From contig JAUWNY010000068.1 of the NCBI GenBank assembly GCA_030612405.1, forward strand, positions 1 to 12,307: 12,307 nt of DNA. The letters run 5' to 3'. Shown here in pieces: positions 113 to 11,855 of this stretch; positions within the stretch are counted from its first letter, which is position 1; each line of letters opens with the position of its first letter. Source of the stretch: Candidatus Methanophagales archaeon (GTDB lineage: Archaea > Halobacteriota > Syntropharchaeia > Alkanophagales > Methanospirareceae). Under the pieces are notes generated by a model. That model was given only the letters and a program-made list of their open reading frames with translations. It was not told the origin of the DNA and ran no database searches. Position numbers and translations under genes: made by a program.

Positions 113-162
113 CAAGAAAACAGAAAATAAATTATGGACACAGATTAACGCAGATTAACACA
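113..162 (+). repeat. Intergenic repeat 'module A', copy 1 (contains the tandem decamers CACAGATTAA/CGCAGATTAA)
   Basis: caagaaaacagaaaataaattatGgacacagattaacgcagattaacaca. Manual alignment gives 49/50 identity with 7596..7645. Confidence 0.9.
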
Positions 163-243: not shown

Positions 244-259
244 AGTGTTGTGTAAATCC

Positions 260-312
260 GTGTAAATCGGTGTCTTAAATAGGAGGAAGCTATAGTTTAT
301 ATACAATAAAAA
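260..312 (-). repeat. Intergenic repeat 'module B', copy 1 (TATA-containing, ends in CAC(C/G)GATTTA units)
   Basis: The reverse complement of 260..312 aligns with 11794..11846 at 48/53 positions (tttttattgtatataaa.tatagcttcct.ctatt.aagacac.gattta). Confidence 0.85.
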
Positions 313-313
313 G

Positions 314-754
314 ATGGATGATTTAGATAAGAAGATACTGAGAGAACTGCAGCGGAATTCTCGCAGTTCGTTCACGAAGATTGCACAGAACATAGGTGTA
401 AGCACTGCCACGGTAAGCGAGAGAGTAAAAAGGCTAACGGAAAAAGGAATTATCTGCGGCTATACTGCGGTTCTCAATACCTCTGAACTCGGCATGGTAA
501 CGTTAATCACAAAGATAAAAATCAAGCCGGGATATAGTGTTGATGAGGTGGGGAAGGAGATAGCGAAACTGGATGAGAGCTGCTGCATTCATCACGTAAC
601 CGGGGATTACGACCTGCTCGTTATCTCTAAGTGCGTGGGCCACGGGAAATGTGGAGCAGTGATAGAGAAAAAGAAGAACATAGAGGGTGTGCAGAGCGTG
701 GATGCGGAACTCGTGCTAAAAACGTTGAAGGAAGAGCTTAAGGTCAAACTGTAG
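314..754 (+). CDS. Lrp/AsnC-family (feast/famine) transcriptional regulator, HTH plus RAM domain
   Basis: N-terminus MDDLDKKILRELQRNSRSSFTKIAQNIGVSTATVSERVKRL is a typical AsnC HTH. The C-terminal half has VTGDYDLLV, typical of the RAM domain. 146 aa. Confidence 0.9.
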   Translation: MDDLDKKILRELQRNSRSSFTKIAQNIGVSTATVSERVKRLTEKGIICGYTAVLNTSELGMVTLITKIKIKPGYSVDEVGKEIAKLDESCCIHHVTGDYDLLVISKCVGHGKCGAVIEKKKNIEGVQSVDAELVLKTLKEELKVKL

Positions 755-803
755 CTTTCAGATTTTGTCCCGTGATTTTGAGCAATTAAGGTGGGGGATT
801 TTT

Positions 804-819
804 TTGTATATAAAGTATA
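804..819 (+). promoter_or_regulatory. TATA-containing 16-mer shared with module B (ttgtatataaagtata)
   Basis: Identical 16-mer at 11800..11815. tatataaa lies at 807-814, about 23 bp upstream of the middle of the left palindrome arm. Confidence 0.4.
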
Positions 820-825
820 ATTTTT

Positions 826-887
826 GCCACAGAGTACACAGAAAGCACAGAGTATTTACCCTCTGTGTCCTCTGCGGTCTCTGTGGC
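826..887. repeat. Long imperfect palindrome. Each arm holds three ~9-bp CACAGA(G/A)NN units, with an 8-nt loop.
   Basis: Left arm gccacagagtacacagaaagcacagag. Right arm ctctgtgtcctctgcggtctctgtggc. Hand pairing gives 9 bp, a 2-nt mismatch, 1 bp, a 1-nt mismatch, 4 bp, a 2-nt mismatch, then 8 bp. Loop is tatttacc. Confidence 0.85.
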
Positions 888-892
888 TATCA

Positions 893-903
893 TTTTTTTT
901 TTT
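893..903 (+). terminator. T11 run, archaeal oligo-T terminator candidate
   Basis: Eleven consecutive T immediately after the 826-887 hairpin. Confidence 0.5.
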
Positions 904-914
904 GGAGGGAAAAA

Positions 915-929
915 CCTAAAATGTTTAGG
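915..929. promoter_or_regulatory. Perfect 6-3-6 palindrome CCTAAA-atg-TTTAGG (operator candidate)
   Basis: The same half-sites with a different spacer (aca) occur at 8603..8617, at the equivalent position of U2. Confidence 0.6.
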
Positions 930-1023
930 GAAAAGGTGGAAAACCTCACAGTAATTTAGTGAATCACATGAAAGTTCATTTTTAAAAAGTTTTTCGGCTA
1001 AAACTTCATGTTCGTTCACACCT

Positions 1024-1050
1024 GTAAAAAAACCGCAAGTTTTATATACT
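1024..1050 (+). promoter_or_regulatory. Core promoter (A-rich BRE-like tract plus TATA tttatata at 1041-1048)
   Basis: gtaaaaaaaccgcaagttttatatact. 21/27 identical to 10008..10034 and similar to 8712..8738. Confidence 0.6.
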
Positions 1051-1087
1051 GTAAATATACAATCTACCAGCAGGAGGTAAAAAATAA

Positions 1088-1114
1088 ATGCCTTCAGGGG
1101 AAAAAAAGAGGTGA
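1088..1114 (+). CDS. 8-codon upstream mini-ORF (MPSGEKKR), speculative
   Basis: Preceded by agcaggaggtaaaaa, the same 15-mer that precedes the start of the 10083 gene. Its stop lies 5 nt before the 1120 ATG, and its 3' end supplies gaggtga as an SD for 1120. Confidence 0.2.
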   Translation: MPSGEKKR

Positions 1115-1119
1115 AATAA

Positions 1120-3882
1120 ATGGCGACAAGAACGAATTCTATAAGTAGTTGTAGTGATTTCAGAATGTCGCGGCGGACGTTCACTAAACTGGCGGCTTTA
1201 GGAACGGCGGCTGCTATCAGTGGAATCGGTGAAGTCGGCGCGTATCCTACGAAGTTTGTGGATAAACTGATCGAACCCGCGAGTGCGGCTCCGGAACCGA
1301 AAGTGGATCTTGTGAGGTCTATATGCGCGCATTGTTCAGTCGGCTGTGGATTCTACGGAAAGGTCGAGGATGGCGTGTTTACGGGCATGGAGCCCTGGGA
1401 GACTCATCCGATAAATGCCGGCGGGATGTGTTCCAAGGGCGCTTCCACGAGGGAAATGGTGGTCTCAGAGAGAAGGTTGAAATATCCGATGAAAAAGGTC
1501 GGCGGTAAGTGGGAGCGAATATCGTGGGATGCTGCGTTGGACGAGATTGCATCAAAGATGGCGGAAGTGAGAAGCAAATACGGACCAGATTCGGTGATGT
1601 TCCTGGGCTCGGCAAAGATGAACAACGAAGAGTGCTATATATACAGGAAGTTAGCTGCTTTCTGGGGCACGAACAATGTTGACCATCAGGCACGAATATG
1701 CCACTCCACTACGGTCCAAGGACTGGCGAACACGTGGGGCTTCGGCGCTCAAACGAACAACATTAATGATATGAGGCACTGCAAATGCCTGTTCTTCCTT
1801 GGCTCGAATGCTGCGGAAGCACATCCAGTGGCGATGCAGCACTTCCTCGAAGCTAAGGACAGGGGTGCTAAAATAATCGTTCTGGACCCGAGACGCACAA
1901 AAACCGCATCAAAGGCGGATATATTCAGTTGGTTCAGACCAGGAACAGATATACCAATAATGCTTGGGCTCATTAATGTCATTGTGAACAACGGCTGGCA
2001 CGATGAGGAGTTCATAAAGAACAGGACTATTGGATTCGATGATTTATGGGAAGTTGCAAAGGACTACACGCCTGAAGTGGTAGAGGACATCTCCTGGGTG
2101 CCTGCTGATACAATCAGGAACATAGCACGAACGCTGTACGAGAATAAGCCATCTGCAATATTCTGGGCAATGGGGCAGACACAGCATACTGTGGGGTCGA
2201 ACAACATCCACATGTCTGCGATTCTACAATTAGTCCTTGGGCATGCTGCACGGTCAGGAGGAGGTTGCCAGGCATTAAGGGGACATGACAACGTTCAGGG
2301 CTCTACCGACATGTGCTTACTCGCGCATTTACTACCAAGTTATTACGGACTTACTGAGAAAGGTTGGAAGCACTGGTGCGAGGTATGGGGCATTCCATAC
2401 GAGGAGATGGTCGGCAGGTTTGCATCGAAGGAGTTCATGGGAAAGAATGGGTTCACAGTTGCGAGATGGTATGAGGGAGTTATTATGCCCGAATCACAAA
2501 TAGACCAGCCACATAACATAAAAATATGCCTTGTGTGGGGTGAAGCGTTAAACTCAGTCACCGAAATGAAGCGGCAGAATGAAGCAATGGAGAAGCTTGA
2601 CCTCATGGTCATCGTTAACCCGCGTGCAAGTCCCGCTTCCGCATTGCCTGAGCGGTCAGATGGTATAATACTGCTTCCTGCATGCACATCATTCGAGAAA
2701 GCGGGAAGTGTAACAACCACCGGCAGACAAGTTCAGTGGAGACATAAGATTATAGACCCGCTTTGGGAGAGTAAGTCAGACTTCGTGATATATCAGGAAC
2801 TTGCAGCGAAGTTAGAGGAGAAGACGGGATTACCATTCAAGAAATACTTCACTTACTCACGTTCAGAGGATGTTTGGCCGGAGCTAAAGGCTGGGATGTT
2901 AGTCATCGGAATGCGACAAGACCCAGAGAGGCTGAAGACGCAACAGGAGTATGATACTACCTTTGATAGGGATACGCTGTGGTCAGAAGCTCTCAAGGAA
3001 TACTGGGGACTACCATGGCCTTGCTGGAACGATACGCACTGTGGAACGCCGCTATTGTATGATGCATCGAAACCTGTAAGCAGAGGAGGACATGACTTTA
3101 GAGTGAAATGGGGCAACACCGTTCCGGAGAACAAGTTTGGTAAACACGTTGGCGAGTCAATGCTGAGAGAGGACTATCCAGTTCCTCAGTATGGTTATGC
3201 ATACGACCCAGCGGAGATAGAGCGTGCACTTGCAGATGGCGAACCACCGACAGGGAGAGGGAAAGCAAGGATATGGATTTGGACATTTGCAGACCCGATT
3301 CCAATACACAGAGAGCCGATAGAGAGCCCAAGACCAGACCTAATTGATAAGTATCCGACGTACGACGATGTAGCATTCCAATACAGAGTACCCGCACCAT
3401 ATAAATCAAATCAGCAGGCGAGAAGGAACATTGTCGATAAGTATCCAATCGTTCTTACCACGGGCAGACAGGTAGAGCACATGGGAGGAGGTGCTCAAAC
3501 AAGAGGATGCGCTTATCTTGCGGAGCTTCAGCCAGAGATGTACGTGGAGATGAACCCAAAACTTGCTAGCGAAATCGGTGTTAATGTGCATAAAACAGGA
3601 ATAACGGATGACTATGTATGGGTAGAGACGCTCAGGGGGAGATGTAAGGTCAAAGCTTATGTGACGGAAGCAGTACCATACGACGAGACGCGGAAGACGG
3701 TATTTATGCCTTACCACTGGGCAGGCATATTTGAAGGCGTGTCTTATGAGGACAGATACCCGCCAGGATGCGGTGAAATCGTAGTCGGTGATTCAGTCAA
3801 TATCATTTGCGTTGACGGGTATGACATTCACACTCAGATGCAAGAGACGAAAGTGTGCCAATGTAATATATACAGGGCATAG
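1120..3882 (+). CDS. fdhA: Tat-exported molybdopterin (bis-MGD) oxidoreductase catalytic subunit, FdnG/FdoG-like formate dehydrogenase alpha, Cys-type
   Basis: Twin-arginine motif SRRTFTKL. N-terminal FeS motif CAHCSVGCGF...CSKG. DHQARICHSTTV and GSNAAEAHPV match E. coli FdnG DNQARVUHGPTV and GNAAEAHPV, with Cys replacing Sec. LRGHDNVQGS is also present. An alternative start at ATG 1165 (MSRRTF) is possible. Confidence 0.9.
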   Translation: MATRTNSISSCSDFRMSRRTFTKLAALGTAAAISGIGEVGAYPTKFVDKLIEPASAAPEPKVDLVRSICAHCSVGCGFYGKVEDGVFTGMEPWETHPINAGGMCSKGASTREMVVSERRLKYPMKKVGGKWERISWDAALDEIASKMAEVRSKYGPDSVMFLGSAKMNNEECYIYRKLAAFWGTNNVDHQARICHSTTVQGLANTWGFGAQTNNINDMRHCKCLFFLGSNAAEAHPVAMQHFLEAKDRGAKIIVLDPRRTKTASKADIFSWFRPGTDIPIMLGLINVIVNNGWHDEEFIKNRTIGFDDLWEVAKDYTPEVVEDISWVPADTIRNIARTLYENKPSAIFWAMGQTQHTVGSNNIHMSAILQLVLGHAARSGGGCQALRGHDNVQGSTDMCLLAHLLPSYYGLTEKGWKHWCEVWGIPYEEMVGRFASKEFMGKNGFTVARWYEGVIMPESQIDQPHNIKICLVWGEALNSVTEMKRQNEAMEKLDLMVIVNPRASPASALPERSDGIILLPACTSFEKAGSVTTTGRQVQWRHKIIDPLWESKSDFVIYQELAAKLEEKTGLPFKKYFTYSRSEDVWPELKAGMLVIGMRQDPERLKTQQEYDTTFDRDTLWSEALKEYWGLPWPCWNDTHCGTPLLYDASKPVSRGGHDFRVKWGNTVPENKFGKHVGESMLREDYPVPQYGYAYDPAEIERALADGEPPTGRGKARIWIWTFADPIPIHREPIESPRPDLIDKYPTYDDVAFQYRVPAPYKSNQQARRNIVDKYPIVLTTGRQVEHMGGGAQTRGCAYLAELQPEMYVEMNPKLASEIGVNVHKTGITDDYVWVETLRGRCKVKAYVTEAVPYDETRKTVFMPYHWAGIFEGVSYEDRYPPGCGEIVVGDSVNIICVDGYDIHTQMQETKVCQCNIYRA
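1165..1287 (+). other. Tat signal peptide region of the catalytic subunit
   Basis: MSRRTFTKLAALGTAAAISG... with the RR consensus, a hydrophobic core and a candidate A-S-A cleavage site. The cleavage position is a guess. Confidence 0.6.
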
Positions 3883-3894
3883 GAGGGATAAAAA

Positions 3895-4440
3895 ATGGTA
3901 ATATATAAATTCTTACATGATGTGGACCGATGTATAGACTGTGGAGGCTGCTTTGCTGCATGCAAAGACCATAACGGTGTTCCAGAGGGTGTAGCGAGGA
4001 TACGAGTGATAAGACTTAACGAGGGAAAGCCAGGGGAAAAATACGCAGCAATGGCTTGCATGCATTGCACTGACCCCGCATGCCTGAGAGCGTGTCCTAC
4101 GAAAGCGATAACCAAGCGACCAGATGGTATTGTGATAAACGACAAAGCCAAATGCATAGGATGTGGATACTGTAGTTGGGCGTGCCCGTTCGGGGCTCCG
4201 AAGTATCCGGATAAAGGACCTGTTGAACTCAGGGGAATAATGGACAAATGCACTTTCTGCGTTGTTCCATATGAACAAGAGAAGGATGTAGCGGGGAATT
4301 TAATACAGCACGAACCAAAACCAGTATGCGTTTCCTTCTGCGCAACCAAGGCACGGCTTGCAGGGGATGTCACGGAGATAACAAAAATATATACTGCGAG
4401 AATGGCTGGGAGATTGGTGCAAAGGCAAGTGGGGGTGTAA
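3895..4440 (+). CDS. fdhB: Four-cluster [4Fe-4S] ferredoxin-type electron-transfer subunit (DmsB/FdnH-core-like, no TM helix)
   Basis: Cys groups CIDCGGCFAAC, CMHCTDPACLRACP, CIGCGYCSWACP, CTFC...CVSFC. SD aggaggg lies upstream. 12-nt gap after the alpha gene. Confidence 0.9.
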   Translation: MVIYKFLHDVDRCIDCGGCFAACKDHNGVPEGVARIRVIRLNEGKPGEKYAAMACMHCTDPACLRACPTKAITKRPDGIVINDKAKCIGCGYCSWACPFGAPKYPDKGPVELRGIMDKCTFCVVPYEQEKDVAGNLIQHEPKPVCVSFCATKARLAGDVTEITKIYTARMAGRLVQRQVGV

Positions 4441-4447
4441 ATAGAGT

Positions 4448-5422
4448 ATGAGCCACACAGCATACGTTGTATTTACAGTATTCAGTCAGATGGCAGTGGG
4501 CGCACTGATAGCAATGGTCATCGCAGACTTTCTCGCGAAGGGAAAGGAGGATGCGAAGTTCTTTGAGACCGGGGCATGGGTATGTGTCCCGGTCGCGGTT
4601 ATTGGCTTGATAGCAATGCTCTCACACGAGGCACGTCCAATCCAAGCGATGATGACGATGAACGCAAACTTAGCTACGTCGTGGCTGAGCAGAGAGTCCT
4701 TAGCATTGACGGTGTTTGTAGTCTTAGCGGTGATATATACGGTGCTGTGGCTATTTGAGCCAGAATACGGCAGTCTCAAGGGGATACCCGTAATACCCAA
4801 GATAGCAAAGTTTTTTATGCCGCTCAGGAAGGTTGTTGGAATCTTAGGTGCGGTTATGGGATTTGCGTACCTCGGTATAGGTGCAAAGGCGTACATGATG
4901 CCCACTATGCCTTCGTGGAACTTAGACACAACGCCGCTGTTCTTCCTGGTTACTACTCTACTCGTGGGCGTAACGGCAGTAGCAGCAGTTCTTTCAGCGA
5001 AATACATGCTTAAAAAAGAAACCGTGGAACGTTTTGCGAACTTTCTTTGGGCTACATGGGGAATTGCGCTGGTAATGGTAATTGTGCTGCTCTTTACACT
5101 GTTTGCAAACATATCTGCGTTACAACAAGTTGGAGTGACAGAAGCCACAACACTAGCTCAAGCGGGAACACTGGAAAACATGCTGCATGGTGATTACACC
5201 GCGCTTTTCTATGCACGAGTGGTAATAGGCGTTATTCTGACACTCGTATGCTTGACAGCGCTTGTATTGCCGCTGAAGAAGAAGGACATCTCAAAAGCAT
5301 CGGCTCTTACACTCGCAGTGTTTCTGTGTGCGCTAATCGGCGAACTTCTGGGAAGGGCGGTGTTCTTCGGTGCGAACGTGTCACTTGGTGAAGTCATGCC
5401 CTACGTGTTATCTACGATATAA
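4448..5422 (+). CDS. Integral membrane anchor subunit, DmsC-like (about 8 TM helices)
   Basis: N-terminal VVFTVFSQMAVGAL resembles DmsC PLMIFTVFGQCVAG. C-terminal GELLGRAVFFG resembles the DmsC GR..FY motif. Eight hydrophobic segments counted by eye. Starts 7 nt after the FeS gene. Confidence 0.7.
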   Translation: MSHTAYVVFTVFSQMAVGALIAMVIADFLAKGKEDAKFFETGAWVCVPVAVIGLIAMLSHEARPIQAMMTMNANLATSWLSRESLALTVFVVLAVIYTVLWLFEPEYGSLKGIPVIPKIAKFFMPLRKVVGILGAVMGFAYLGIGAKAYMMPTMPSWNLDTTPLFFLVTTLLVGVTAVAAVLSAKYMLKKETVERFANFLWATWGIALVMVIVLLFTLFANISALQQVGVTEATTLAQAGTLENMLHGDYTALFYARVVIGVILTLVCLTALVLPLKKKDISKASALTLAVFLCALIGELLGRAVFFGANVSLGEVMPYVLSTI

Positions 5423-5440
5423 CATAAAAAAATAAAAAAC

Positions 5441-5498
5441 GGTTGTGGAAACAAACTTTAAGAAAGTTTGTTAAAAATCCACAACCTACTATTTTTTG
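5441..5498. terminator. Strong hairpin plus T-run between convergent operons (bidirectional terminator candidate)
   Basis: ggttgtggaaacaaacttt-aag-aaagtttgtt(aaaaa)tccacaacc, followed by tactatttttt. Confidence 0.6.
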
Positions 5499-5628
5499 CA
5501 AAATCTTTAAAAAATCTTCAAAATCAGAAGAAAAAAAACTCCATTTATCTCATCACTTACTTTTAACATCTACCTGGCTTCCCGAAATAAATCCAACCAT
5601 TTCAAACACCAAAGGAGTTTATTTAAGT

Positions 5629-5994
5629 CTATTCCTTCTCGGACTTAGAGGCTTCCAGCTTTGCCTGAACTTCCTCTTTTAACTCCTCTTCGGTCTTCCC
5701 TTCGGTATCTATGCCCATATACGCAGCCACTTCTGTTATGTTTACTTCCTCGCCCTTTGTCTTCGCGGTCGCTTTTTTCGGTATCTCTTCTTCACTGCCT
5801 GTCACAGATTCTTCAAATTTCTTGTAGTTAATCTCCGCTTCCTTCCTCGCTTTTTTGAACTCCCCCATTGCCTGTCCAAACGACCTGGCAAGTTGCGGCA
5901 CCTTAGTTGCGCCGAACAGCAGAATGATTATCAATACTATTATCCCAATCTCAGTTGGTCCTATCCCTCCAATAAAAAGCATTCCTCCAATCAT
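5629..5994 (-). CDS. tatA: Sec-independent translocase TatA/E-family protein with a long acidic C-terminal tail
   Basis: GPTEIGIIVLIIILLFGATKVPQLARSFGQAMGEFKKA matches the TatA TM-hinge-amphipathic helix signature. SD ggaggtg lies 8 nt upstream of the ATG. Confidence 0.85.
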   Translation of the reverse strand: MIGGMLFIGGIGPTEIGIIVLIIILLFGATKVPQLARSFGQAMGEFKKARKEAEINYKKFEESVTGSEEEIPKKATAKTKGEEVNITEVAAYMGIDTEGKTEEELKEEVQAKLEASKSEKE

Positions 5995-6065
5995 CGTTTT
6001 TTGGCACCTCCAATTTATATAATATTAATTAAGGTTGAAGGTATATATAAATATATCGTATTTTT

Positions 6066-6815
6066 TCAAGCTTTCTTTTTTAAAGAGAGTCTTGCTATTA
6101 GTAATCCAAGCTCGAACATAGCTATTGACACCACCGCCATCAACATTGAAATACCCGTAGGGTCGGCGATGACAAAGAGAGCGATTCCTATTATCAGCCC
6201 ATAAAATATCAGTCGCTTACCCCTGAGCCATGAATACGTTACGAGCTTCATCCTTACCGCCAGAGCCATTATTAAAGGGATTTGAAAAATCAGCCCGAAT
6301 CCCACAGCGGTGTAAAGGATAATAGAGAAAACCCTTTTAGCTGAAAGCCTCACCAGTGCTATCTCGCCGGAGTAGGCGATAATGTAATCAAAAACGCGTG
6401 GAAGCACGATGTAATAGGCGAAGAAAGCGCCGAGTCCATACAAGCATAGCGAAGGAATAACAACAATCATGAAAAATCGCCTCTCCGACGGATATAAACC
6501 CGGTCGCATAAAAGCGAAAATCTCATATAGTAACAAGGGTAAAATAACAGAAAGAGCACATAAAAAGGAGAACATCAGCCTCACGCTTAGCCATTCCATC
6601 GGACCGTACACAAATAAAGACATATCACCGTGGAATAGATGGGTTAATAAGACGTGAAGGTAATCGTTTGAAAAAGGGAACATGATCAGGGTAACCGCTG
6701 CGAACGGGATTAAAACAACGACGAGTCTTCTTCGTAGTTCGGCGAGATGCGCGATTAATGGAAGCTCCTCATCGCTCACAGGTTCACTTATCTCATTTCC
6801 AGTTTGCAATTCCAT
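6066..6815 (-). CDS. tatC: TatC paralogue 1
   Basis: LIAHLAELRRRLV (TatC N-terminus) and FMRPGLYPSERRF (compare E. coli FIAPALYKHERRL). Six hydrophobic segments. I prefer ATG 6815 (MELQ...). The ORF-track start at 6851 is a TTG. Confidence 0.8.
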   Translation of the reverse strand: MELQTGNEISEPVSDEELPLIAHLAELRRRLVVVLIPFAAVTLIMFPFSNDYLHVLLTHLFHGDMSLFVYGPMEWLSVRLMFSFLCALSVILPLLLYEIFAFMRPGLYPSERRFFMIVVIPSLCLYGLGAFFAYYIVLPRVFDYIIAYSGEIALVRLSAKRVFSIILYTAVGFGLIFQIPLIMALAVRMKLVTYSWLRGKRLIFYGLIIGIALFVIADPTGISMLMAVVSIAMFELGLLIARLSLKKKA

Positions 6816-6857
6816 TTTTTTCTTATCCTCTTCCCTTTTAGTCAGGAGCAATGACAG

Positions 6858-7592
6858 ATGACAAGCAGTAGCATCAGCGAGGAGTTTGGATATATAATAG
6901 AAGCGTTAAAGAGAAAAATCATGCTTATTTCGGGCATTGTCATCGCTACTATGCTTCTCTCTTTTTCTTTATTGGTAGACCCCGCGTTACAGAGGATAAA
7001 ACAAGACCTCCTGCCTGCAGGCGCCACCCTCATCTATATTTCACCCGTAGAAGTGATAATGCTGAAGTTAAGGATAGCCTTGCTCACTGGCGTAATACTT
7101 GCCACTCCTGTTGTATGCTATTATGCATATAAGACATTAAAAGCGAGGTTCGGGATAAAGAGTCCAATGAAAAAAACACATCTCTTTATATTGCTTGGTT
7201 CTGCCATTTCTTTGTTCATTGCAGGGATAAGTTACGCTTACTTCCTTATGCTGCCGCTCGTTCTCCGTTATCTCAACTATATGTCATCATCAGCGGGTGT
7301 TATTGCTACCTGGTCAATCAACGAGTTCGTATTTTTTGTTGTTGTAATAACGCTCATACTGGGGTTAGCGTTTGAACTGCCTATCGTTATCGTCTTTGTC
7401 GTTTATTCCGGACTCGTCCAGGTAAACACGCTGAAGGAATACAGGCGGTACGTCCTTGTGGGAATGTTCGTTCTCGCAGCATTTTTTACACCGCCAGATG
7501 TGGTGAGTCAGCTCATTGTCGCTTTTCCTTTGATTGTTTTCTATGAGGTAGGAATAATACTTGCGAGCATTATCTCTAAGAGACGTTTGTAA
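6858..7592 (+). CDS. tatC: TatC paralogue 2, divergently transcribed from paralogue 1
   Basis: [30 protein letters not shown] matches E. coli [32 protein letters not shown] matches FEVPVAIVL. SD caggag lies upstream. Confidence 0.85.
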   Translation: [244 protein letters not shown]

Positions 7593-7595
7593 TTG

Positions 7596-7645
7596 CAAGA
7601 AAACAGAAAATAAATTATAGACACAGATTAACGCAGATTAACACA
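7596..7645 (+). repeat. Intergenic repeat 'module A', copy 2
   Basis: 49/50 identical to 113..162. Starts 4 nt after the tatC2 stop. Confidence 0.9.
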
Positions 7646-7750
7646 GATGATAAGAATCAACACGCTTAAACTACAAGAAATGGTAGTAAACATAGGATAA
7701 AATCATTAATATAACGCTGAAAATGGGTTTCTGTTATTGTTCTCTCGTGA

Positions 7751-7770
7751 AAATCTGTGTAATCTTGTGG
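7751..7770 (-). repeat. Inverted arm partner of module A copy 2 (CCACAAGATTACACAGATTT on the minus strand)
   Basis: aaatctgtgtaatcttgtgg is an imperfect reverse complement of the CACAGATTAA units at 7621-7645. A tttata box (minus strand, 7796-7791) lies about 23 bp away. Confidence 0.55.
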
Positions 7771-7796
7771 TTAATACTTTTTGGAATGACTATAAA

Positions 7797-8522
7797 TCAC
7801 AAAATCCGCCATCCGTTCGTGTACACATTAAACCGTTTATCGCGGGCGAACCCGACAAGGGTTATGCCAAATTCGGTTGCATCTCGTATTGCCTGTTCAG
7901 TAGGTGCAGAAACGCTTATGGCAACAGGGAAACCCGCAAAGAGCACCTTCTTCACGGTGGTGTGCGTTTGTCGGGAAGAAGTAACTAAAATGTTTTCAGA
8001 AATCGCTATCCCGTTTTTAATGCACGTCCCTATGAGCTTGTCTATCGCGCAATGCCTGCTAACATCTTCGATAAAGATGCCCTGTCCATTTTGATCGAAA
8101 GCCGCAACCACATGCGTGCCACCCGTCGCTTTATACAATACGCCCTCCTCTTCTAACTCTTTTACACGTTTAAACACGTCTTCGCACCTTATTTTTATCC
8201 TTGAGTTGACCTTCGAGGGCTTCCGATGGACTTCTCGCTCTAACGTAACACGTATTACATATTTCCCGGGTTTCGCCTCTTCGACATCGAGATTCGCGAT
8301 GTAAGAAGTGTCAAGCCCCTCGGAGTTCAAATGCCCGATTGCCAGCTCTTCAAAATGCGAAGGCAGGCAAAATAACTGGCTGTGTAGTTCTCCCCCTACG
8401 TCTATCCTTACTTCCGCTTCGCGAACGACAAAATCGTCTCTACGTCTTTGTAAGCATTTATCTCCAGAAACTTCGCGGATTTTCACGGGGGCAAGCGCTC
8501 CCCCCCTTTTCTTCGGGTCCAT
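7797..8522 (-). CDS. fdhD: FdhD-family formate dehydrogenase accessory sulfurtransferase
   Basis: ATGGTHVVAAF, SRHCAIDKLIG (compare GRHNAxDK), LVTSSRQTHTTVKK, VSAPTEQAIRDATEFGITLVGFAR. 241 aa. Confidence 0.85.
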   Translation of the reverse strand: MDPKKRGGALAPVKIREVSGDKCLQRRRDDFVVREAEVRIDVGGELHSQLFCLPSHFEELAIGHLNSEGLDTSYIANLDVEEAKPGKYVIRVTLEREVHRKPSKVNSRIKIRCEDVFKRVKELEEEGVLYKATGGTHVVAAFDQNGQGIFIEDVSRHCAIDKLIGTCIKNGIAISENILVTSSRQTHTTVKKVLFAGFPVAISVSAPTEQAIRDATEFGITLVGFARDKRFNVYTNGWRIL

Positions 8523-8578
8523 ACTGTTTTATCAATCATATTTTTAAACCAAATCTTCTTAAATCAAACGACTGAAAG

Positions 8579-8738
8579 TTTGGTTAGAAGATGCAGACAA
8601 AACCTAAAACATTTAGGGAAAAAACCAAAAACCTATCAATAATTTAGAAAAAACAGTAAAAACTTCATTTTTAAAAAGAATCTTCGTTAATGTCTTATAT
8701 TCATTTGTGTCGCAAAAAATCGAAAGCTTTTTATACTG
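8579..8738. promoter_or_regulatory. Control module U2 in the fdhD / cytochrome divergent intergenic region (homologue of 901..1051)
   Basis: The collinear block 8599..8738 (140 nt) aligns with 911..1051 (141 nt) and shares all conserved sub-blocks. TATA tttttata at 8728-8735. Confidence 0.75.
8603..8617. promoter_or_regulatory. Perfect 6-3-6 palindrome CCTAAA-aca-TTTAGG (operator candidate)
   Basis: Half-sites identical to 915..929 with a different spacer. Confidence 0.6.
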
Positions 8739-8795: not shown

Positions 8796-9929
8796 ATGCC
8801 AAAAAGAGAATACGCAAGAAGCTGTAAATCGATGAGTGCAATAGTGAAGACTGCGAAGCCAATGTTGCCCCTGCTAGTTATTGCAGTGTTAGCGGTATCG
8901 CTGGTGAGTATAGCGATAGCGGCTGAGGAAGACTTCGGCGGTTGTGAAGGCTGTCACCCGGGAATTGCCGAGAATTTTTCGACATCGCTGCACTACACCC
9001 TCAGGGGAATGCCGGCAGAGTGGGAGAAAGGTGCAGCAGGGCATTTCGGAATTGATATGGATGCGTTTTATGCAAAGGGCAACTGCACTAACTGCCATGT
9101 CAGCACCTGCGAAAAGTGCCATGAAGGAGGGCATGGTGCGGAGATAACCATAGATACATGTGACCAATGCCATTTAAAGAAGCAGGCAGGGTTTGTAGGA
9201 GATACTCCAGCACATAAAGGTACAGGACCCAACGCCGACATCCACTATGAGATGGGGCTTATATGCATAGATTGCCATACAGCGGAAGAGATGCACGGTA
9301 CTGGTGTTGAGTATAGCACGATGCTTGAAGCAGTCACGACAGAGTGTGAGGACTGCCACAACAGTCCGGGGAAGGTTGTCAAGGACATGCCCGTGACGCA
9401 GTATTCACCTGATACGCCATCGCACAAGATACACGGAGAGAAACTTGACTGTACAGCATGCCACTCAGGATGGACGCCAACATGTACAAACTGCCATATA
9501 GATATCGAGAAGCCTCCCGGGACGGCTACAGTAGTGACAGACGAGTTCTATCTTGCTAAAGGTGTTGATGGCAAGATAAAACCGTTCCTTAAAATAGCGG
9601 CTATCTATAATAACGAAACGCATACAGGATGGGCTGAATGGTTCCCTCATACAACCACAAAAGTGGCAAAAGACTGTGCATTCTGTCACGAAAACCCGGA
9701 AGTGCTCTGTGAGGGTTGCGAGGATCAAACCCCCCTCACAATGCTCGGACCCGGAGGTTCATTCATACCACAAGAGACGATAGACAAGGTTTTAGCTGTA
9801 GAAATGCCTGCGGCACCAACGGAAACACCAGCAGAACCAGCAGCAACGCCTACACCACCAGGTTTCGAACTGATATTCGCAGTGATTGCTATTGCAGTGG
9901 TTGTGCTTCTTGCAAAACGGAGACATTAG
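8796..9929 (+). CDS. Nonaheme c-type cytochrome, secreted, with Thr/Pro linker and PGF-CTERM anchor
   Basis: Nine CxxCH motifs: CEGCH, CTNCH, CEKCH, CDQCH, CIDCH, CEDCH, CTACH, CTNCH, CAFCH. N-terminal hydrophobic signal MLPLLVIAVLAVSLVSIAIAA. C-terminus PAEPAATPTPPGFELIFAVIAIAVVVLLAKRRH. Confidence 0.95.
   Translation: MPKREYARSCKSMSAIVKTAKPMLPLLVIAVLAVSLVSIAIAAEEDFGGCEGCHPGIAENFSTSLHYTLRGMPAEWEKGAAGHFGIDMDAFYAKGNCTNCHVSTCEKCHEGGHGAEITIDTCDQCHLKKQAGFVGDTPAHKGTGPNADIHYEMGLICIDCHTAEEMHGTGVEYSTMLEAVTTECEDCHNSPGKVVKDMPVTQYSPDTPSHKIHGEKLDCTACHSGWTPTCTNCHIDIEKPPGTATVVTDEFYLAKGVDGKIKPFLKIAAIYNNETHTGWAEWFPHTTTKVAKDCAFCHENPEVLCEGCEDQTPLTMLGPGGSFIPQETIDKVLAVEMPAAPTETPAEPAATPTPPGFELIFAVIAIAVVVLLAKRRH
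9858..9926 (+). other. PGF-CTERM archaeosortase-A sorting signal
   Basis: PGF, then a hydrophobic helix, then KRRH at the extreme C-terminus, preceded by a T/P-rich linker. Confidence 0.85.
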
Positions 9930-9944
9930 GTAAAAAAGAGTGTG

Positions 9945-9986
9945 AGGGTCTAAGCAATCGGCTGGACCCTTTTTTTTATTTTTTTA
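9945..9986 (+). terminator. Hairpin (agggtc/gaccct) plus T8-A-T7 terminator
   Basis: agggtctaagcaatcggctggaccctttttttttattttttt. Duplicated at 11759..11799. Confidence 0.7.
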
Positions 9987-10007: not shown

Positions 10008-10034
10008 GTAAAAAATCGGAAACCATTATATACT
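10008..10034 (+). promoter_or_regulatory. Core promoter U3 of the 426-aa gene (TATA ttatatac at 10026-10033)
   Basis: gtaaaaaatcggaaaccattatatact is 21/27 identical to 1024..1050. The downstream 15-mer agcaggaggtaaaaa (10067-10081) is identical to 1069-1083. Confidence 0.6.
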
Positions 10035-10082
10035 CTAAAATTTAAGGAAGATATTACATGTCTAATAGCAGGAGGTAAAAAT

Positions 10083-11363
10083 ATGGGTAAAAATAGAATA
10101 GTGATAACTGTTGTAGCAACAGTTATTGTTGCTGCTCTGGTTCTATCGGCTGTATCTGTTGCACAGATGCACGGTAAGGGCGGAATGCAGAGAATGGGGC
10201 CACAGCAGGCAATGGGCGTAGGGCAGGGGTTACGTCATGGAGCTGGCATGCACGGTGGTCCAGGATTTATGTATCAGAGCGGGTGTGCGTATGGCGAATA
10301 CGTAACATTTTCTGTGGATGAAACAAGCGGAATCGTTTATGACTATGGCATAGCCGGGGATCCTATGCTGACCTCCATCGAGGTCGTTGATTTTGAATAT
10401 GGCGACACAATAGTGAGTGGTGCAGTCACACGGATTATAAATGAGAATGGCTCAATAGCGATTATGTTGCACGATACGCCGTCAGCGCCGTTGAATTTTT
10501 TAGCCACAACGGATTTCACCGTTAAATTCGAGGTGGCAGACGGCGTAACGATATCAGAGGACGATACTGGTGTGAAACTCGAATCAGGCGAGGTGTCTGC
10601 ATATATCCTTGCAACTGCGCCAGCAGGCGTCACAGCACCAGCAGTAACGATATCCGGGCAAATAGTCACGATTGATGCACCTGCTAGCAGTGTAGTGCTG
10701 CTTCGAGCAGTACCTGTGATTTTTGGGTATGACGGTGCCACCATGACAATGAACAGAAACTTCGTCAGGCGGATGGTAAACGACCAAATCGGGGCTGATG
10801 TCACCATCGGTGCACAACAAAGTGCATATTGCATTTTTGATTACGCCAACCTGACTCCGATGCAGTTATCATACAACAACCGAACATGCTTTAGAATACT
10901 AAATAGAACTCCGACACAACTTAAAATCGCACTGAACTCGGATTCACCATTGGGCAGGCTGATTGGCATCAATCTCGACAATGCTTTCGGACTGCAGGAC
11001 CGTGAGACGTTGCAGATTCGATACGATGGTAGGGTTTTGCCGTGTTTATCTAATCCCGAACAGGTAATACAAGCACGTGAAACTACCTGCTGGTTAAATC
11101 GATACAACAACACAAGGGCACAGTTGATGCTATATGTAAGCAACTTTTCCGAGCATATTCTCGAAATCGAAGTTTATGAGGAGAGAGAAGAGGTGGAGCC
11201 TACTGCCGCTCCGAATGTGACTCAAACACCGACATCCACGCCATTCGAACCAACTGTGACAGAGTCACCCACACAGGACACACCAGGATTTGGTGCACTT
11301 GCAGTCGTTATGGGGGTTATCGTTGCATTAATCATGAAACGGCGTTACGGGCGTTCCAAATAA
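10083..11363 (+). CDS. Secreted PGF-CTERM surface protein of unknown function with a Met/His/Gly-rich N-terminal segment, probably a glycoprotein
   Basis: Signal/TM IVITVVATVIVAALVLSAVSVA. Then MHGKGGMQRMGPQQAMGVGQGLRHGAGMHGGPGFM. Seven N-x-S/T sequons. C-terminal T/P-rich linker plus PGFGALAVVMGVIVALIMKRRYGRSK. I recognise no family for the central domain. Confidence 0.8.
   Translation: MGKNRIVITVVATVIVAALVLSAVSVAQMHGKGGMQRMGPQQAMGVGQGLRHGAGMHGGPGFMYQSGCAYGEYVTFSVDETSGIVYDYGIAGDPMLTSIEVVDFEYGDTIVSGAVTRIINENGSIAIMLHDTPSAPLNFLATTDFTVKFEVADGVTISEDDTGVKLESGEVSAYILATAPAGVTAPAVTISGQIVTIDAPASSVVLLRAVPVIFGYDGATMTMNRNFVRRMVNDQIGADVTIGAQQSAYCIFDYANLTPMQLSYNNRTCFRILNRTPTQLKIALNSDSPLGRLIGINLDNAFGLQDRETLQIRYDGRVLPCLSNPEQVIQARETTCWLNRYNNTRAQLMLYVSNFSEHILEIEVYEEREEVEPTAAPNVTQTPTSTPFEPTVTESPTQDTPGFGALAVVMGVIVALIMKRRYGRSK
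11283..11360 (+). other. PGF-CTERM sorting signal
   Basis: TPGFGALAVVMGVIVALIMKRRYGRSK. Confidence 0.8.
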
Positions 11364-11461: not shown

Positions 11462-11743
11462 ACACACAGTAACAGACACAAGCCAAAGGATTGTGTATTC
11501 TGCCACGACAGCAAGGAAGTGCTTTGCGAGGGTTGCGAAGGTGATATTCTCGGACAAGGAGGTTCACTTATAGCTCAAGAGACGATAGACAAGATATACG
11601 GGATAGCTATGCCAACTGAAACACCAACACCAACGGTCACATCGGCTACGCCAGCAGCAACGCCTACACCACCAGGTTTCGAACTGATATTCGCAGTGAT
11701 TGCAATTGCAGTGGTTGTGCTTCTTGCAAAACGGAGACATTAG
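11462..11743 (+). pseudogene. 5'-truncated remnant of a paralogous multiheme cytochrome gene (last CxxCH, linker and PGF-CTERM)
   Basis: In-frame translation ...KDCVFCHDSKEVLCEGCEGDILGQGGSLIAQETIDK...PGFELIFAVIAIAVVVLLAKRRH parallels residues KDCAFCHENPEVLCEGCEDQ... of the 8796 gene. The frame is closed by TAG at 11444-11446 and has no ATG upstream of the homology. The ORF-track start at 11519 is a GTG inside the homology. Confidence 0.75.
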
Positions 11744-11758
11744 TTAAAAAAGAGGGTG

Positions 11759-11799
11759 AGGGTCTAAGCAATCGGCTGGACCCTTTTTTTATTTTTTTA
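11759..11799 (+). terminator. Second copy of the hairpin plus oligo-T terminator
   Basis: agggtctaagcaatcggctggaccctttttttattttttt. Confidence 0.7.
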
Positions 11800-11846
11800 T
11801 TGTATATAAAGTATAGCTTCCTTCTATTCAAGACACAGATTTATAC
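11794..11846 (+). repeat. Intergenic repeat 'module B', copy 2 (TATA tatataaa at 11803-11810)
   Basis: 48/53 identical to the reverse complement of 260..312. Confidence 0.85.
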
Positions 11847-11855
11847 AAATTAAGC

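Follow-up and report, generated by a model that had tools for sequence, protein, structure and literature searches.

Two promoters of an ANME-1 archaeon, one preceding a formate dehydrogenase operon (fdhABC) and the other a multihaem c-type cytochrome gene, carry the same inverted repeat, CCTAAA-N3-TTTAGG, which the Lrp/AsnC-family regulator encoded in the same locus (lrp, Table 1) probably uses as its high-affinity operator, a reading to which we assign a probability of about 0.6. Judged from its sequence, the palindrome forms with a weaker neighbouring site a probable Lrp-type (FFRP) operator pair, new in ANME-1 and of an already known kind, and the fdhABC and cytochrome operons probably stand under one common switch. 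An earlier sequence-only reading of this DNA had proposed the same regulator and is supported in every part that could be tested in silico, with binding itself standing as a prediction.

The window, that is, the whole 12,307-nucleotide stretch analysed, is part of a 39.5-kb metagenomic contig, and the relatives that bear the motif carry ANME-1 or Methanophagales labels. By its gene content, fdhABC matches the outward-facing membrane-bound formate dehydrogenase of ANME-1, an enzyme of sporadic distribution in this group that was seen on an early fosmid adjoining a c-type cytochrome (PMC9012536). Orthologues of the window cytochrome are found across ANME and alkane-oxidising archaea. According to the annotation of the window genes, lrp is the sole DNA-binding gene in the locus.

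Table 1. Genes and promoter elements of the window, in order of position; U1 and U2 are the promoter modules before fdhA and before the cytochrome gene.
Feature	Positions	Strand	Remarks
lrp, Lrp/AsnC (FFRP) regulator, 146 aa	314-754	+	Candidate binder of the palindrome; Pfam and PDB matches
U1 site 1, CCTAAA-ATG-TTTAGG, CCTAAAATGTTTAGG	915-929	.	Perfect palindrome, 5' of fdhABC
U1 site 2, AACCT-CACAG-TAATTTAG	942-959	+	Sequence reading, spacing measured
U1 A/T box, TTCATTTTTAAAAAG	975-989	.	Exact match to the U2 copy
fdhABC-operon BRE (CGCAAG) and TATA (TTTTATATA)	1034-1048	+	Palindrome centre to TATA start, 119 bp
fdhABC operon	1120-5422	+	Proposed U1 target
fdhA-like molybdoenzyme with Tat signal (exported), formate dehydrogenase alpha family	1120-3882	+	
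4Fe-4S subunit of fdhABC	3895-4440	+	
NrfD/DmsC membrane anchor of fdhABC	4448-5422	+	
tatA	5629-5994	-	
tatC	6066-6851	-	
Second tatC	6858-7592	+	
fdhD, FdhD/NarQ sulfurtransferase	7797-8522	-	Oriented away from the cytochrome gene; the U2 site may control it as well
fdhD TATA-like box, TTTAAAAATA	8539-8548	-	About 17 nt upstream of the fdhD ATG; putative promoter
U2 site 1, CCTAAA-ACA-TTTAGG, CCTAAAACATTTAGG	8603-8617	.	Perfect palindrome; 13-bp core CTAAA-N3-TTTAG
U2 site 2, AACCT-N5-TAATTTAG	8630-8647	+	Imperfect: good TTTAG half, TAA spacer, poor left half
U2 A/T box, TTCATTTTTAAAAAG	8664-8678	.	Longest exact U1/U2 match, 15 nt
Cytochrome-operon BRE (CGAAAG) and TATA (CTTTTTATAC)	8721-8737	+	Sequence and orthologue conservation
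Multihaem c-type cytochrome with PGF-CTERM anchor	8796-9929	+	Proposed U2 target
426-aa protein	10083-11363	+	No assigned function

The two inverted repeats, for which identical half-sites and a differing 3-bp spacer had been claimed, were confirmed in both position and exactness. A search of the window for CCTAAA-N3-TTTAGG returned exactly these two matches whether 0, 1 or 2 mismatches were allowed, and over a 14-kb stretch of the contig (L001) the same pair stood alone at up to 3 mismatches. A perfect match arose in none of 200 dinucleotide-preserving shuffles. The proposed Lrp/AsnC-type form, abcde-WWW-e'd'c'b'a' (a 13-17 bp dyad typical of archaeal FFRP operators), is borne out by the perfect dyad: CTAAA-N3-TTTAG is a perfect 5+5 dyad in all nine copies of the promoter module and extends to 6+6 in the window. 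The conserved core is taken to be this 13-mer because the outermost right-arm G is an A in two relatives, L032 and L038. Between the fixed half-sites the spacer reads ATG, ACA or ATA, the first two with one G:C pair each and the all-W version in L038 only. Three spacers combined with fixed half-sites are the trace expected of a dimeric protein that would ignore the centre.

Each palindrome is embedded in one of two homologous modules and is not an isolated element, a context that the sequence-only reading understated. U1 and U2 are homologous over ~140 bp (68% identity), from the palindrome to the BRE/TATA, and this homology begins exactly at AAAACCTAAA, with no alignable sequence 5' of it; the palindrome marks the 5' boundary of a promoter module, ~140 bp long, that has been duplicated. 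Read in the 5'-to-3' direction, this module comprises site 1 (the palindrome), site 2, an A/T box and the BRE/TATA, with 118-120 bp between the palindrome centre and the TATA start in the two copies. The distance to the cytochrome TATA had been given as ~125 bp. In the other direction, the palindrome centre lies about 62-70 bp from the TATA-like box of fdhD, in keeping with the ~60-70 bp proposed.

Site 2 corresponds to an extra TTTAG half-site that had been placed about 35 bp downstream; it is real in both modules, at a spacing of 31 bp. Its TTTAG starts 31 bp after that of the palindrome in both window modules, and its centre lies ~31 bp (three helical turns) from the centre of site 1. All nine module copies keep a CCT-to-CCT spacing of 29 bp and a TTTAG-to-TTTAG spacing of 30-31 bp, and the TTTAG half of site 2 is retained in every copy except L007, where it reads TTTGG. 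The A/T box TTCATTTTTAAAAAG is degraded in L007, GoMg2 and L038 and may be either a stretch that bends easily or a secondary TATA-like box. It was rejected as a third Lrp site, as its TTT..AAA polarity does not suit the half-site. A third site confined to U1 (CTAAA-ACT-TCATG, 998-1010), with one perfect half, was also dismissed in view of its absence from U2.

The sequence CG(C/A)AAG followed by TTTTATATA precedes the fdhA and cytochrome genes in every lineage examined, distant ones included, and because of this conservation CG(C/A)AAG with its TTTAWATA box is read as the putative archaeal BRE/TATA core promoter. An 8-codon upstream open reading frame at 1089-1115 was dropped, its ATG being ATA in L007 and GoMg2.

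The gene at 314-754 had been called Lrp/AsnC, and its product is a true member of that family. It combines an N-terminal AsnC-type helix-turn-helix (PF13404, 61.8 bits; HTH_AsnC, 5e-17) with a C-terminal RAM domain (PF01037, 32.9 bits; 6e-8), both above the Pfam thresholds. A siroheme decarboxylase identity was discarded, the AhbA and AhbB models scoring far below their cut-offs. Its top PDB matches are FL11, Grp and LrpA, and the best solved relative is FL11 of Pyrococcus (E 2e-18), to which the helix-turn-helix aligns without gaps at an offset of +4. An AlphaFold model of the regulator, built from an input alignment without the L003 protein, has a helix-rich N-terminal domain and a beta-alpha-beta-beta-alpha-beta domain (mean pLDDT 79).

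The gapless alignment permits the DNA contacts of the regulator to be read from the published recognition code of FFRPs. According to this code, residues 34 and 37 (FL11 numbering) read base a, residue 36 reads base b and residues 24, 35 and 39 read bases c to e (PMC2715240). At base b, Ser36 goes with G or A and Ala36 or Thr36 with T; Thr37 goes with T or C at position a, and Arg39 with C at position c (PMC2715240). The corresponding residues of the regulator are F20, S30, T31, A32, T33 and S35 (FL11 positions 24, 34, 35, 36, 37 and 39), which show little or no variation among 30 orthologues (67-100% identity). Applied to Phe24, Ser34, Thr35, Ala36, Thr37 and Ser39, the code gives Y-T-(not C)-A-A as the expected half-site, and the window has C-T-A-A-A; the half-site bases thus fit what these residues would be expected to read. 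The comparison was one that could have failed, for example with Arg39 present. The code is semi-quantitative, since the G36A substitution in TvFL3 took the share of T at position b from 3.6% to no more than 25% (PMC2715240).

Of the characterised systems, FL11 itself offers the closest parallel. Its SELEX optimum, CCGAAA[AAT/ATT]TTTCGG (Yokoyama et al., PMC2715240), is again palindromic over 15 bp, its 6-bp halves flanking an uncontacted 3-bp centre, and it differs from the window site by one base per half-site (b, G to T), matching the change from Ser36 in FL11 to Ala36 in the window protein. The likeness to FL11 that had been proposed stands, whereas the consensus quoted for it, TGAAA...TTTCA, is a poorer match than the SELEX optimum. 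Both proteins have Thr37 and lack Arg39, which fits AAA at positions c to e. Whereas the centre of the FL11 site is WWW, the window spacers hold one G:C pair each; centres with two W and one S make up 6-37% of SELEX-selected FFRP sites (PMC2715240). The two systems also part in their biology: FL11 is a repressor that acts from promoter sites and responds to lysine or arginine, whereas the window sites lie ~90-125 bp upstream of the TATA, the regulator has a cysteine-rich effector domain and the targets, unlike those of FL11, are respiratory operons.

Other archaeal Lrp proteins share further elements of this arrangement. Ss-LrpB of Sulfolobus solfataricus likewise uses a palindromic box and helically phased sites (PMC2995911), and spacings of two or three helical turns between sites are documented for archaeal Lrp proteins (PMC2995911). 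The box of Ss-LrpB has a WWW centre and, unlike that of the window, a TTGCAA half-site, and the protein has Arg39. The Ss-LrpB promoter has three regular boxes, whereas the window lrp shows no clear autoregulatory box. Ptr2 of Methanocaldococcus jannaschii and LysM of Sulfolobus, both Lrp-family activators, resemble the window system in having two phased palindromic sites upstream of the BRE/TATA, and Ala36 of LysM is a precedent for T at position b. In these systems the proximal site lies a few bp from the BRE and contacts TBP, whereas the nearest recognisable site in the window is ~85 bp from the BRE; Arg39 and Glu35 impose on their half-sites a CG core that those of the window lack. Ss-Lrp of S. 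solfataricus has Ser34, Ala36 and Thr37 in common with the window protein, and its predicted site, TTAAA-WWW-TTTAA (Yokoyama et al. 2009), differs from CTAAA-N3-TTTAG at position a only. It departs from the window protein in having Leu24, Pro35 and His39 instead of Phe24, Thr35 and Ser39. Ss-Lrp binds its own promoter, and its site is a prediction supported by footprints only.

The distribution of the palindrome among related genomes was followed by pattern scans and through the neighbouring proteins. A scan of 185,579 species genomes with the strict pattern AAACCTAAANNNTTTAGGGAAA (palindrome plus flanks) yielded 19 matches, of which four fell in ANME-1 genomes, all upstream of fdhA, and a 22-base version of the pattern added two further module copies from metagenomes. 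Both scans returned U1-type copies and chance matches only; the flanks in the pattern caused the U2 copies of GoMg1 and L032 to be missed, and both were later recovered via proteins. Altogether ten contigs, representing about eight lineages or strains of ANME-1, have the site; fdhA is very divergent in one of them. The U1 palindrome is identical in L007, L011, L014, L029, GoMg1 and GoMg2 and reads CCTAAA-ATA-TTTAGA (AAAACCTAAA-ATA-TTTAGA) in L038, while the U2 palindrome is kept in GoMg1 (L037, 7515-7529) and, bar the outermost G, in L032. The literature searched held no description of such a motif in ANME-1.

In most of these contigs the regulator gene accompanies the site. Both occur together in L001, L007, L011, L014, L017, L029, L032 and L038, and in L002 and GoMg1 (L037) the contig ends before the position of lrp. 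In seven of these eight (L001, L007, L011, L014, L017, L029 and L038) lrp is directly upstream of U1, and in L032, which is without fdhABC, it adjoins the fdhD-U2-cytochrome segment.

Agreement among close relatives adds little, because their module identity (0.85-0.92) sits near the neutral expectation given by four-fold degenerate sites (0.79-0.87). The informative comparisons are two only, U1 against U2 and the window against L038. In L038, fdhA has 61% protein identity to that of the window and 35% identity at four-fold sites, that is, saturation, and the locus retains the order lrp (88% identical), palindrome core, site 2 at 30 bp and fdhA. Between these two intergenic regions the longest collinear exact matches are the BRE/TATA (13 nt, CAAGTTTTATATA at the U1 BRE/TATA), the left half of the palindrome (12 nt) and the ribosome-binding site (11 nt), although an exact match of at least 12 nt occurs in 4% of shuffles of these A/T-rich spacers. 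No invariant run in the nine module copies is longer than AAAACCTAAAA (11 nt), after which come two variable centre bases and TTTAG; second in length, as measured in an eight-copy alignment, is TATACTG of the TATA box.

Retention at orthologous loci holds for the ten ANME-1 contigs, the divergent L038 included, and does not extend to the other lineages examined. No palindrome was found upstream of fdhA in L003 (fdhA 85% identical), L005, L006 or L008, nor before the cytochrome genes of L034 and L035. One CTAAAGTCTTTAA does occur in L008, 390 bp before fdhA, probably by chance. In L003 (Lrp 77% identical) and in L041-L043, where a nifU-lrp pair (Lrp 83%) lies in an unrelated neighbourhood, no YTAAA-N3-TTTAR was found within about 10 kb. 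The Lrp proteins of these two lineages have identical contact residues, and other ANME-1 Lrp paralogues could have the same ones. Nor was an autoregulatory site found before lrp or nifU, where only a AAAACCTAT box is in common with site 2.

Such absences lend some weight to a different account, in which the operator is real and bound by another dimeric factor encoded elsewhere, an Lrp paralogue or a member of another winged-helix family, while the adjacent lrp serves nifU or other targets. The nifU-lrp pair is kept in L041-L043 without fdh, cytochrome or palindrome, and lrp adjoins molybdoenzyme operons without the site in L003. This account is nevertheless unlikely: an FFRP is indicated by the form of the site, by its agreement with the contact code and by the relationship of the protein to FL11, no second regulator gene lies nearby, and the linkage of lrp and site persists in L038 despite replacement of fdhA by a version that is 61% identical.

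Homology between U1 and U2 over ~140 bp means that shared ancestry could explain part of the identity of the two palindromes, and taken further it would make the palindrome a functionless passenger in a duplicated promoter cassette, its copies alike through common descent only. Most orthologues are too close to inform on this point, and long stretches of exact identity are not unusual in A/T-rich DNA. Even so, a passenger is improbable. The half-sites are intact at 68% U1/U2 identity while the centre differs, and L038 has a third centre, the site surviving there although neighbouring synonymous sites are saturated; insertions of repeat elements abut the palindrome and never enter the module, and a perfect 6+6 palindrome is not produced by descent alone. 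It is far less probable still that the repeat acts as a nucleic-acid hairpin (a terminator of lrp or an RNA element) or as a recombination or transposon end, even though in U1-type loci the lrp stop codon precedes it by 57-160 bp and MITE-like repeats abound around it. An intrinsic terminator or structured RNA was rejected on account of a stem of only 6 bp with a 3-nt loop (-3.3 kcal/mol), no T-run after it and no match to an Rfam family; moreover, U2 is not behind any co-oriented gene, and the spacer changes leave pairing unaltered, so that covariation cannot be assessed. A MITE or transposon terminal repeat was likewise rejected, as there are only two copies, one per promoter, neither at the end of a repeat family, and the MITE-like families of the window have other termini.

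Under the preferred reading, with the lrp product as the binder, what we infer of binding, oligomer wrapping and the sign of regulation can be put as follows. One dimer would occupy the 13-bp core CTAAA-N3-TTTAG, inserting its two recognition helices into consecutive major grooves and bending the 3-bp centre without reading it. The weaker site ~31 bp downstream, on the same helix face, would take up a further dimer from that oligomer, and the complex would bend, wrap or spread along the A/T-rich DNA toward the BRE/TATA. One protein would then co-ordinate the secreted formate dehydrogenase (fdhABC, through U1), electron export by way of the cytochrome operon (through U2) and possibly the divergent fdhD.

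Archaeal repressors usually overlap or follow the TATA box. For this reason, and because two targets of Ss-LrpB are activated from a core site that lies over 100 bp upstream and from which the protein spreads downstream (PMC2995911), an upstream activating site is somewhat more likely here than a repressor site. A complex ~90-125 bp upstream of the BRE/TATA would more probably stimulate than block the pre-initiation complex. The site is farther from the BRE than the classic activator sites of Ptr2 and LysM.

The signal to which the regulator responds, likewise inferred, may differ from that of the amino-acid-sensing members of the family. Among the 30 orthologues C90, C107 and C113 are invariant, C91 and C48 nearly so and His94 largely conserved, and all six residues are absent from FL11. 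In the AlphaFold model the cysteines and histidine of the RAM domain fall where beta-3 begins, where beta-4 ends and in the opening turn of the helix after it, a region in which the effector pocket of the Lrp family forms (PMC2995911), so the model would place these cysteines near the canonical pocket. The gene is also co-operonic with one for a NifU/IscU-type Fe-S scaffold, including outside the fdh context. An Fe-S, metal or thiol signal is possible because of the conserved cysteines near the pocket and this partner. Tentatively, and at a low probability, the regulator may represent a new sensory type of Lrp, responding through an Fe-S cluster, a metal or a thiol redox switch, and not an amino-acid-sensing feast/famine protein; no precedent for an Fe-S Lrp was found in the literature searched.

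ANME-1 archaea are uncultured consumers of much of the methane in marine sediments, and the transfer of electrons to their partner bacteria is a long-standing open question for which formate and direct transfer via multihaem cytochromes are the candidates. To our knowledge, no gene regulation has been described in ANME-1. An operator common to the promoters of fdhABC and the cytochrome gene, together with a named candidate regulator, would imply that the two systems are switched together. The pairing of regulator and operator is approachable without culturing ANME-1, and CTAAA-N3-TTTAG with the 146-aa protein provides a clean, independent test case for the DNA-recognition code of FFRPs. If the sensory reading is true, an Fe-S, metal or thiol signal would set both candidate routes of interspecies electron transfer by way of the CTAAA-N3-TTTAG operators.

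The Lrp/AsnC regulator encoded at window 314-754, the proposed binder of the palindromes that head the homologous promoter modules U1 (before fdhABC) and U2 (before the multihaem cytochrome gene), belongs to an orthogroup found in ANME-1 only. Its C-terminal RAM domain carries conserved cysteines and a conserved histidine (SCCIHH ... SKCVGHGKCG) that are missing from FL11, the Pyrococcus protein that is its closest solved relative. The pairing of lrp with nifU, an IscU-like gene, recurs in several contexts, and a metal, an Fe-S cluster or a redox signal is a possible effector of the regulator.

Among the lineages, the nifU(-lrp) promoter shows strong conservation, with the arrangement CCATGTTTGTTTAAAAACCTATG...TATATTCGTTAAAAACC-N6-TTTTATATA, and shares a AAAACCTAT box with site 2 of U2. 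The motif AAAACCT occurs 10 times in L001, the 14-kb contig stretch that includes the window, against 2.3 expected. In the related locus L038, only a remnant of nifU persists, and lrp is driven by the nifU promoter.

The window contains MITE-like repeats that form a family whose terminal inverted repeats (GACACAGATTAACGCAGATTAACAC / GTGTAAATCCGTGTAAATCGGTGTC) are imperfect. One copy lies between nifU and lrp and supplies the TATA box that precedes lrp in this contig; it is also present in the related locus L003 and is absent from L007 and L014, where lrp directly abuts the nifU stop codon. Pieces related to the same family are found at the rearrangement junctions of L032, L011, L017, and GoMg1. 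On its other side, lrp is separated from U1 by an insertion composed of a 63-nt hairpin-like element and an inverted promoter-like copy; the 96%-identical strain L007 lacks the hairpin-like insertion.

Positions of repeat, promoter, and protein features at the lrp and cytochrome loci
Feature	Sequence or character	Position
MITE-like repeat pieces		window 113-162, 7596-7645, 11826-11853
MITE-like repeat pair, inverted		window 255-315 vs 11791-11851
MITE-like element		window about 135-275
Inverted promoter-like copy accompanying the hairpin-like element		window 799-819
Hairpin-like element, 63 nt	GCCACAGAG...CTCTGTGGC, CACAGA/TCTGTG-rich	window 825-887
Third core-promoter copy and U1-type 5' leader copy, before the 426-aa gene	GTAAAAAATCGGAAACCATTATATACT (promoter); TCTAATAGCAGGAGGTAAAAA (leader)	window 10008-10039 and 10061-10081
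nifU(-lrp) promoter		L001 760-835 (just upstream of window); L041 9490-9560; L038 6100-6175
Conserved Cys/His positions of window Lrp		residues 48, 90, 91, 94, 107, 113

A 27-bp insertion in the L038 module gives rise to a second TATA-like box (L038 6855-6915). Measured from the palindrome centre, one of the two boxes is at +120, as in U1 and U2, and the box that is homologous by sequence sits at +148. The third promoter and leader copy, before the 426-aa gene downstream of the cytochrome gene, comes without the palindrome module.

Following this 426-aa gene stands a second copy of the cytochrome gene's 3' third, including the PGF-CTERM region and downstream sequence (window 9667-9984 vs 11484-11798, 76-92% identity); it yields a 74-aa ORF that bears a PGF-CTERM motif. 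The GoMg1 cytochrome (L037 7708-8817 vs window 8796-9929) is 67% identical to that of the window by global alignment and 60% by BLASTP, with a 4-fold identity of 0.67, while U2, fdhA, and fdhD are 92%, 97%, and 90% identical, respectively. Behind a conserved promoter and N-terminus, the cytochrome body has apparently undergone exchange or is evolving fast.

In strain L032, U1 and fdhABC are missing, as are tatA and the two tatC genes (L032 1168-2400, against window 755-8600). Its cytochrome and Lrp are 95% identical to their window counterparts, and the order there is lrp, MITE-like stretch, fdhD, U2, and cytochrome gene. This pattern fits the sporadic occurrence of this formate dehydrogenase in ANME-1.
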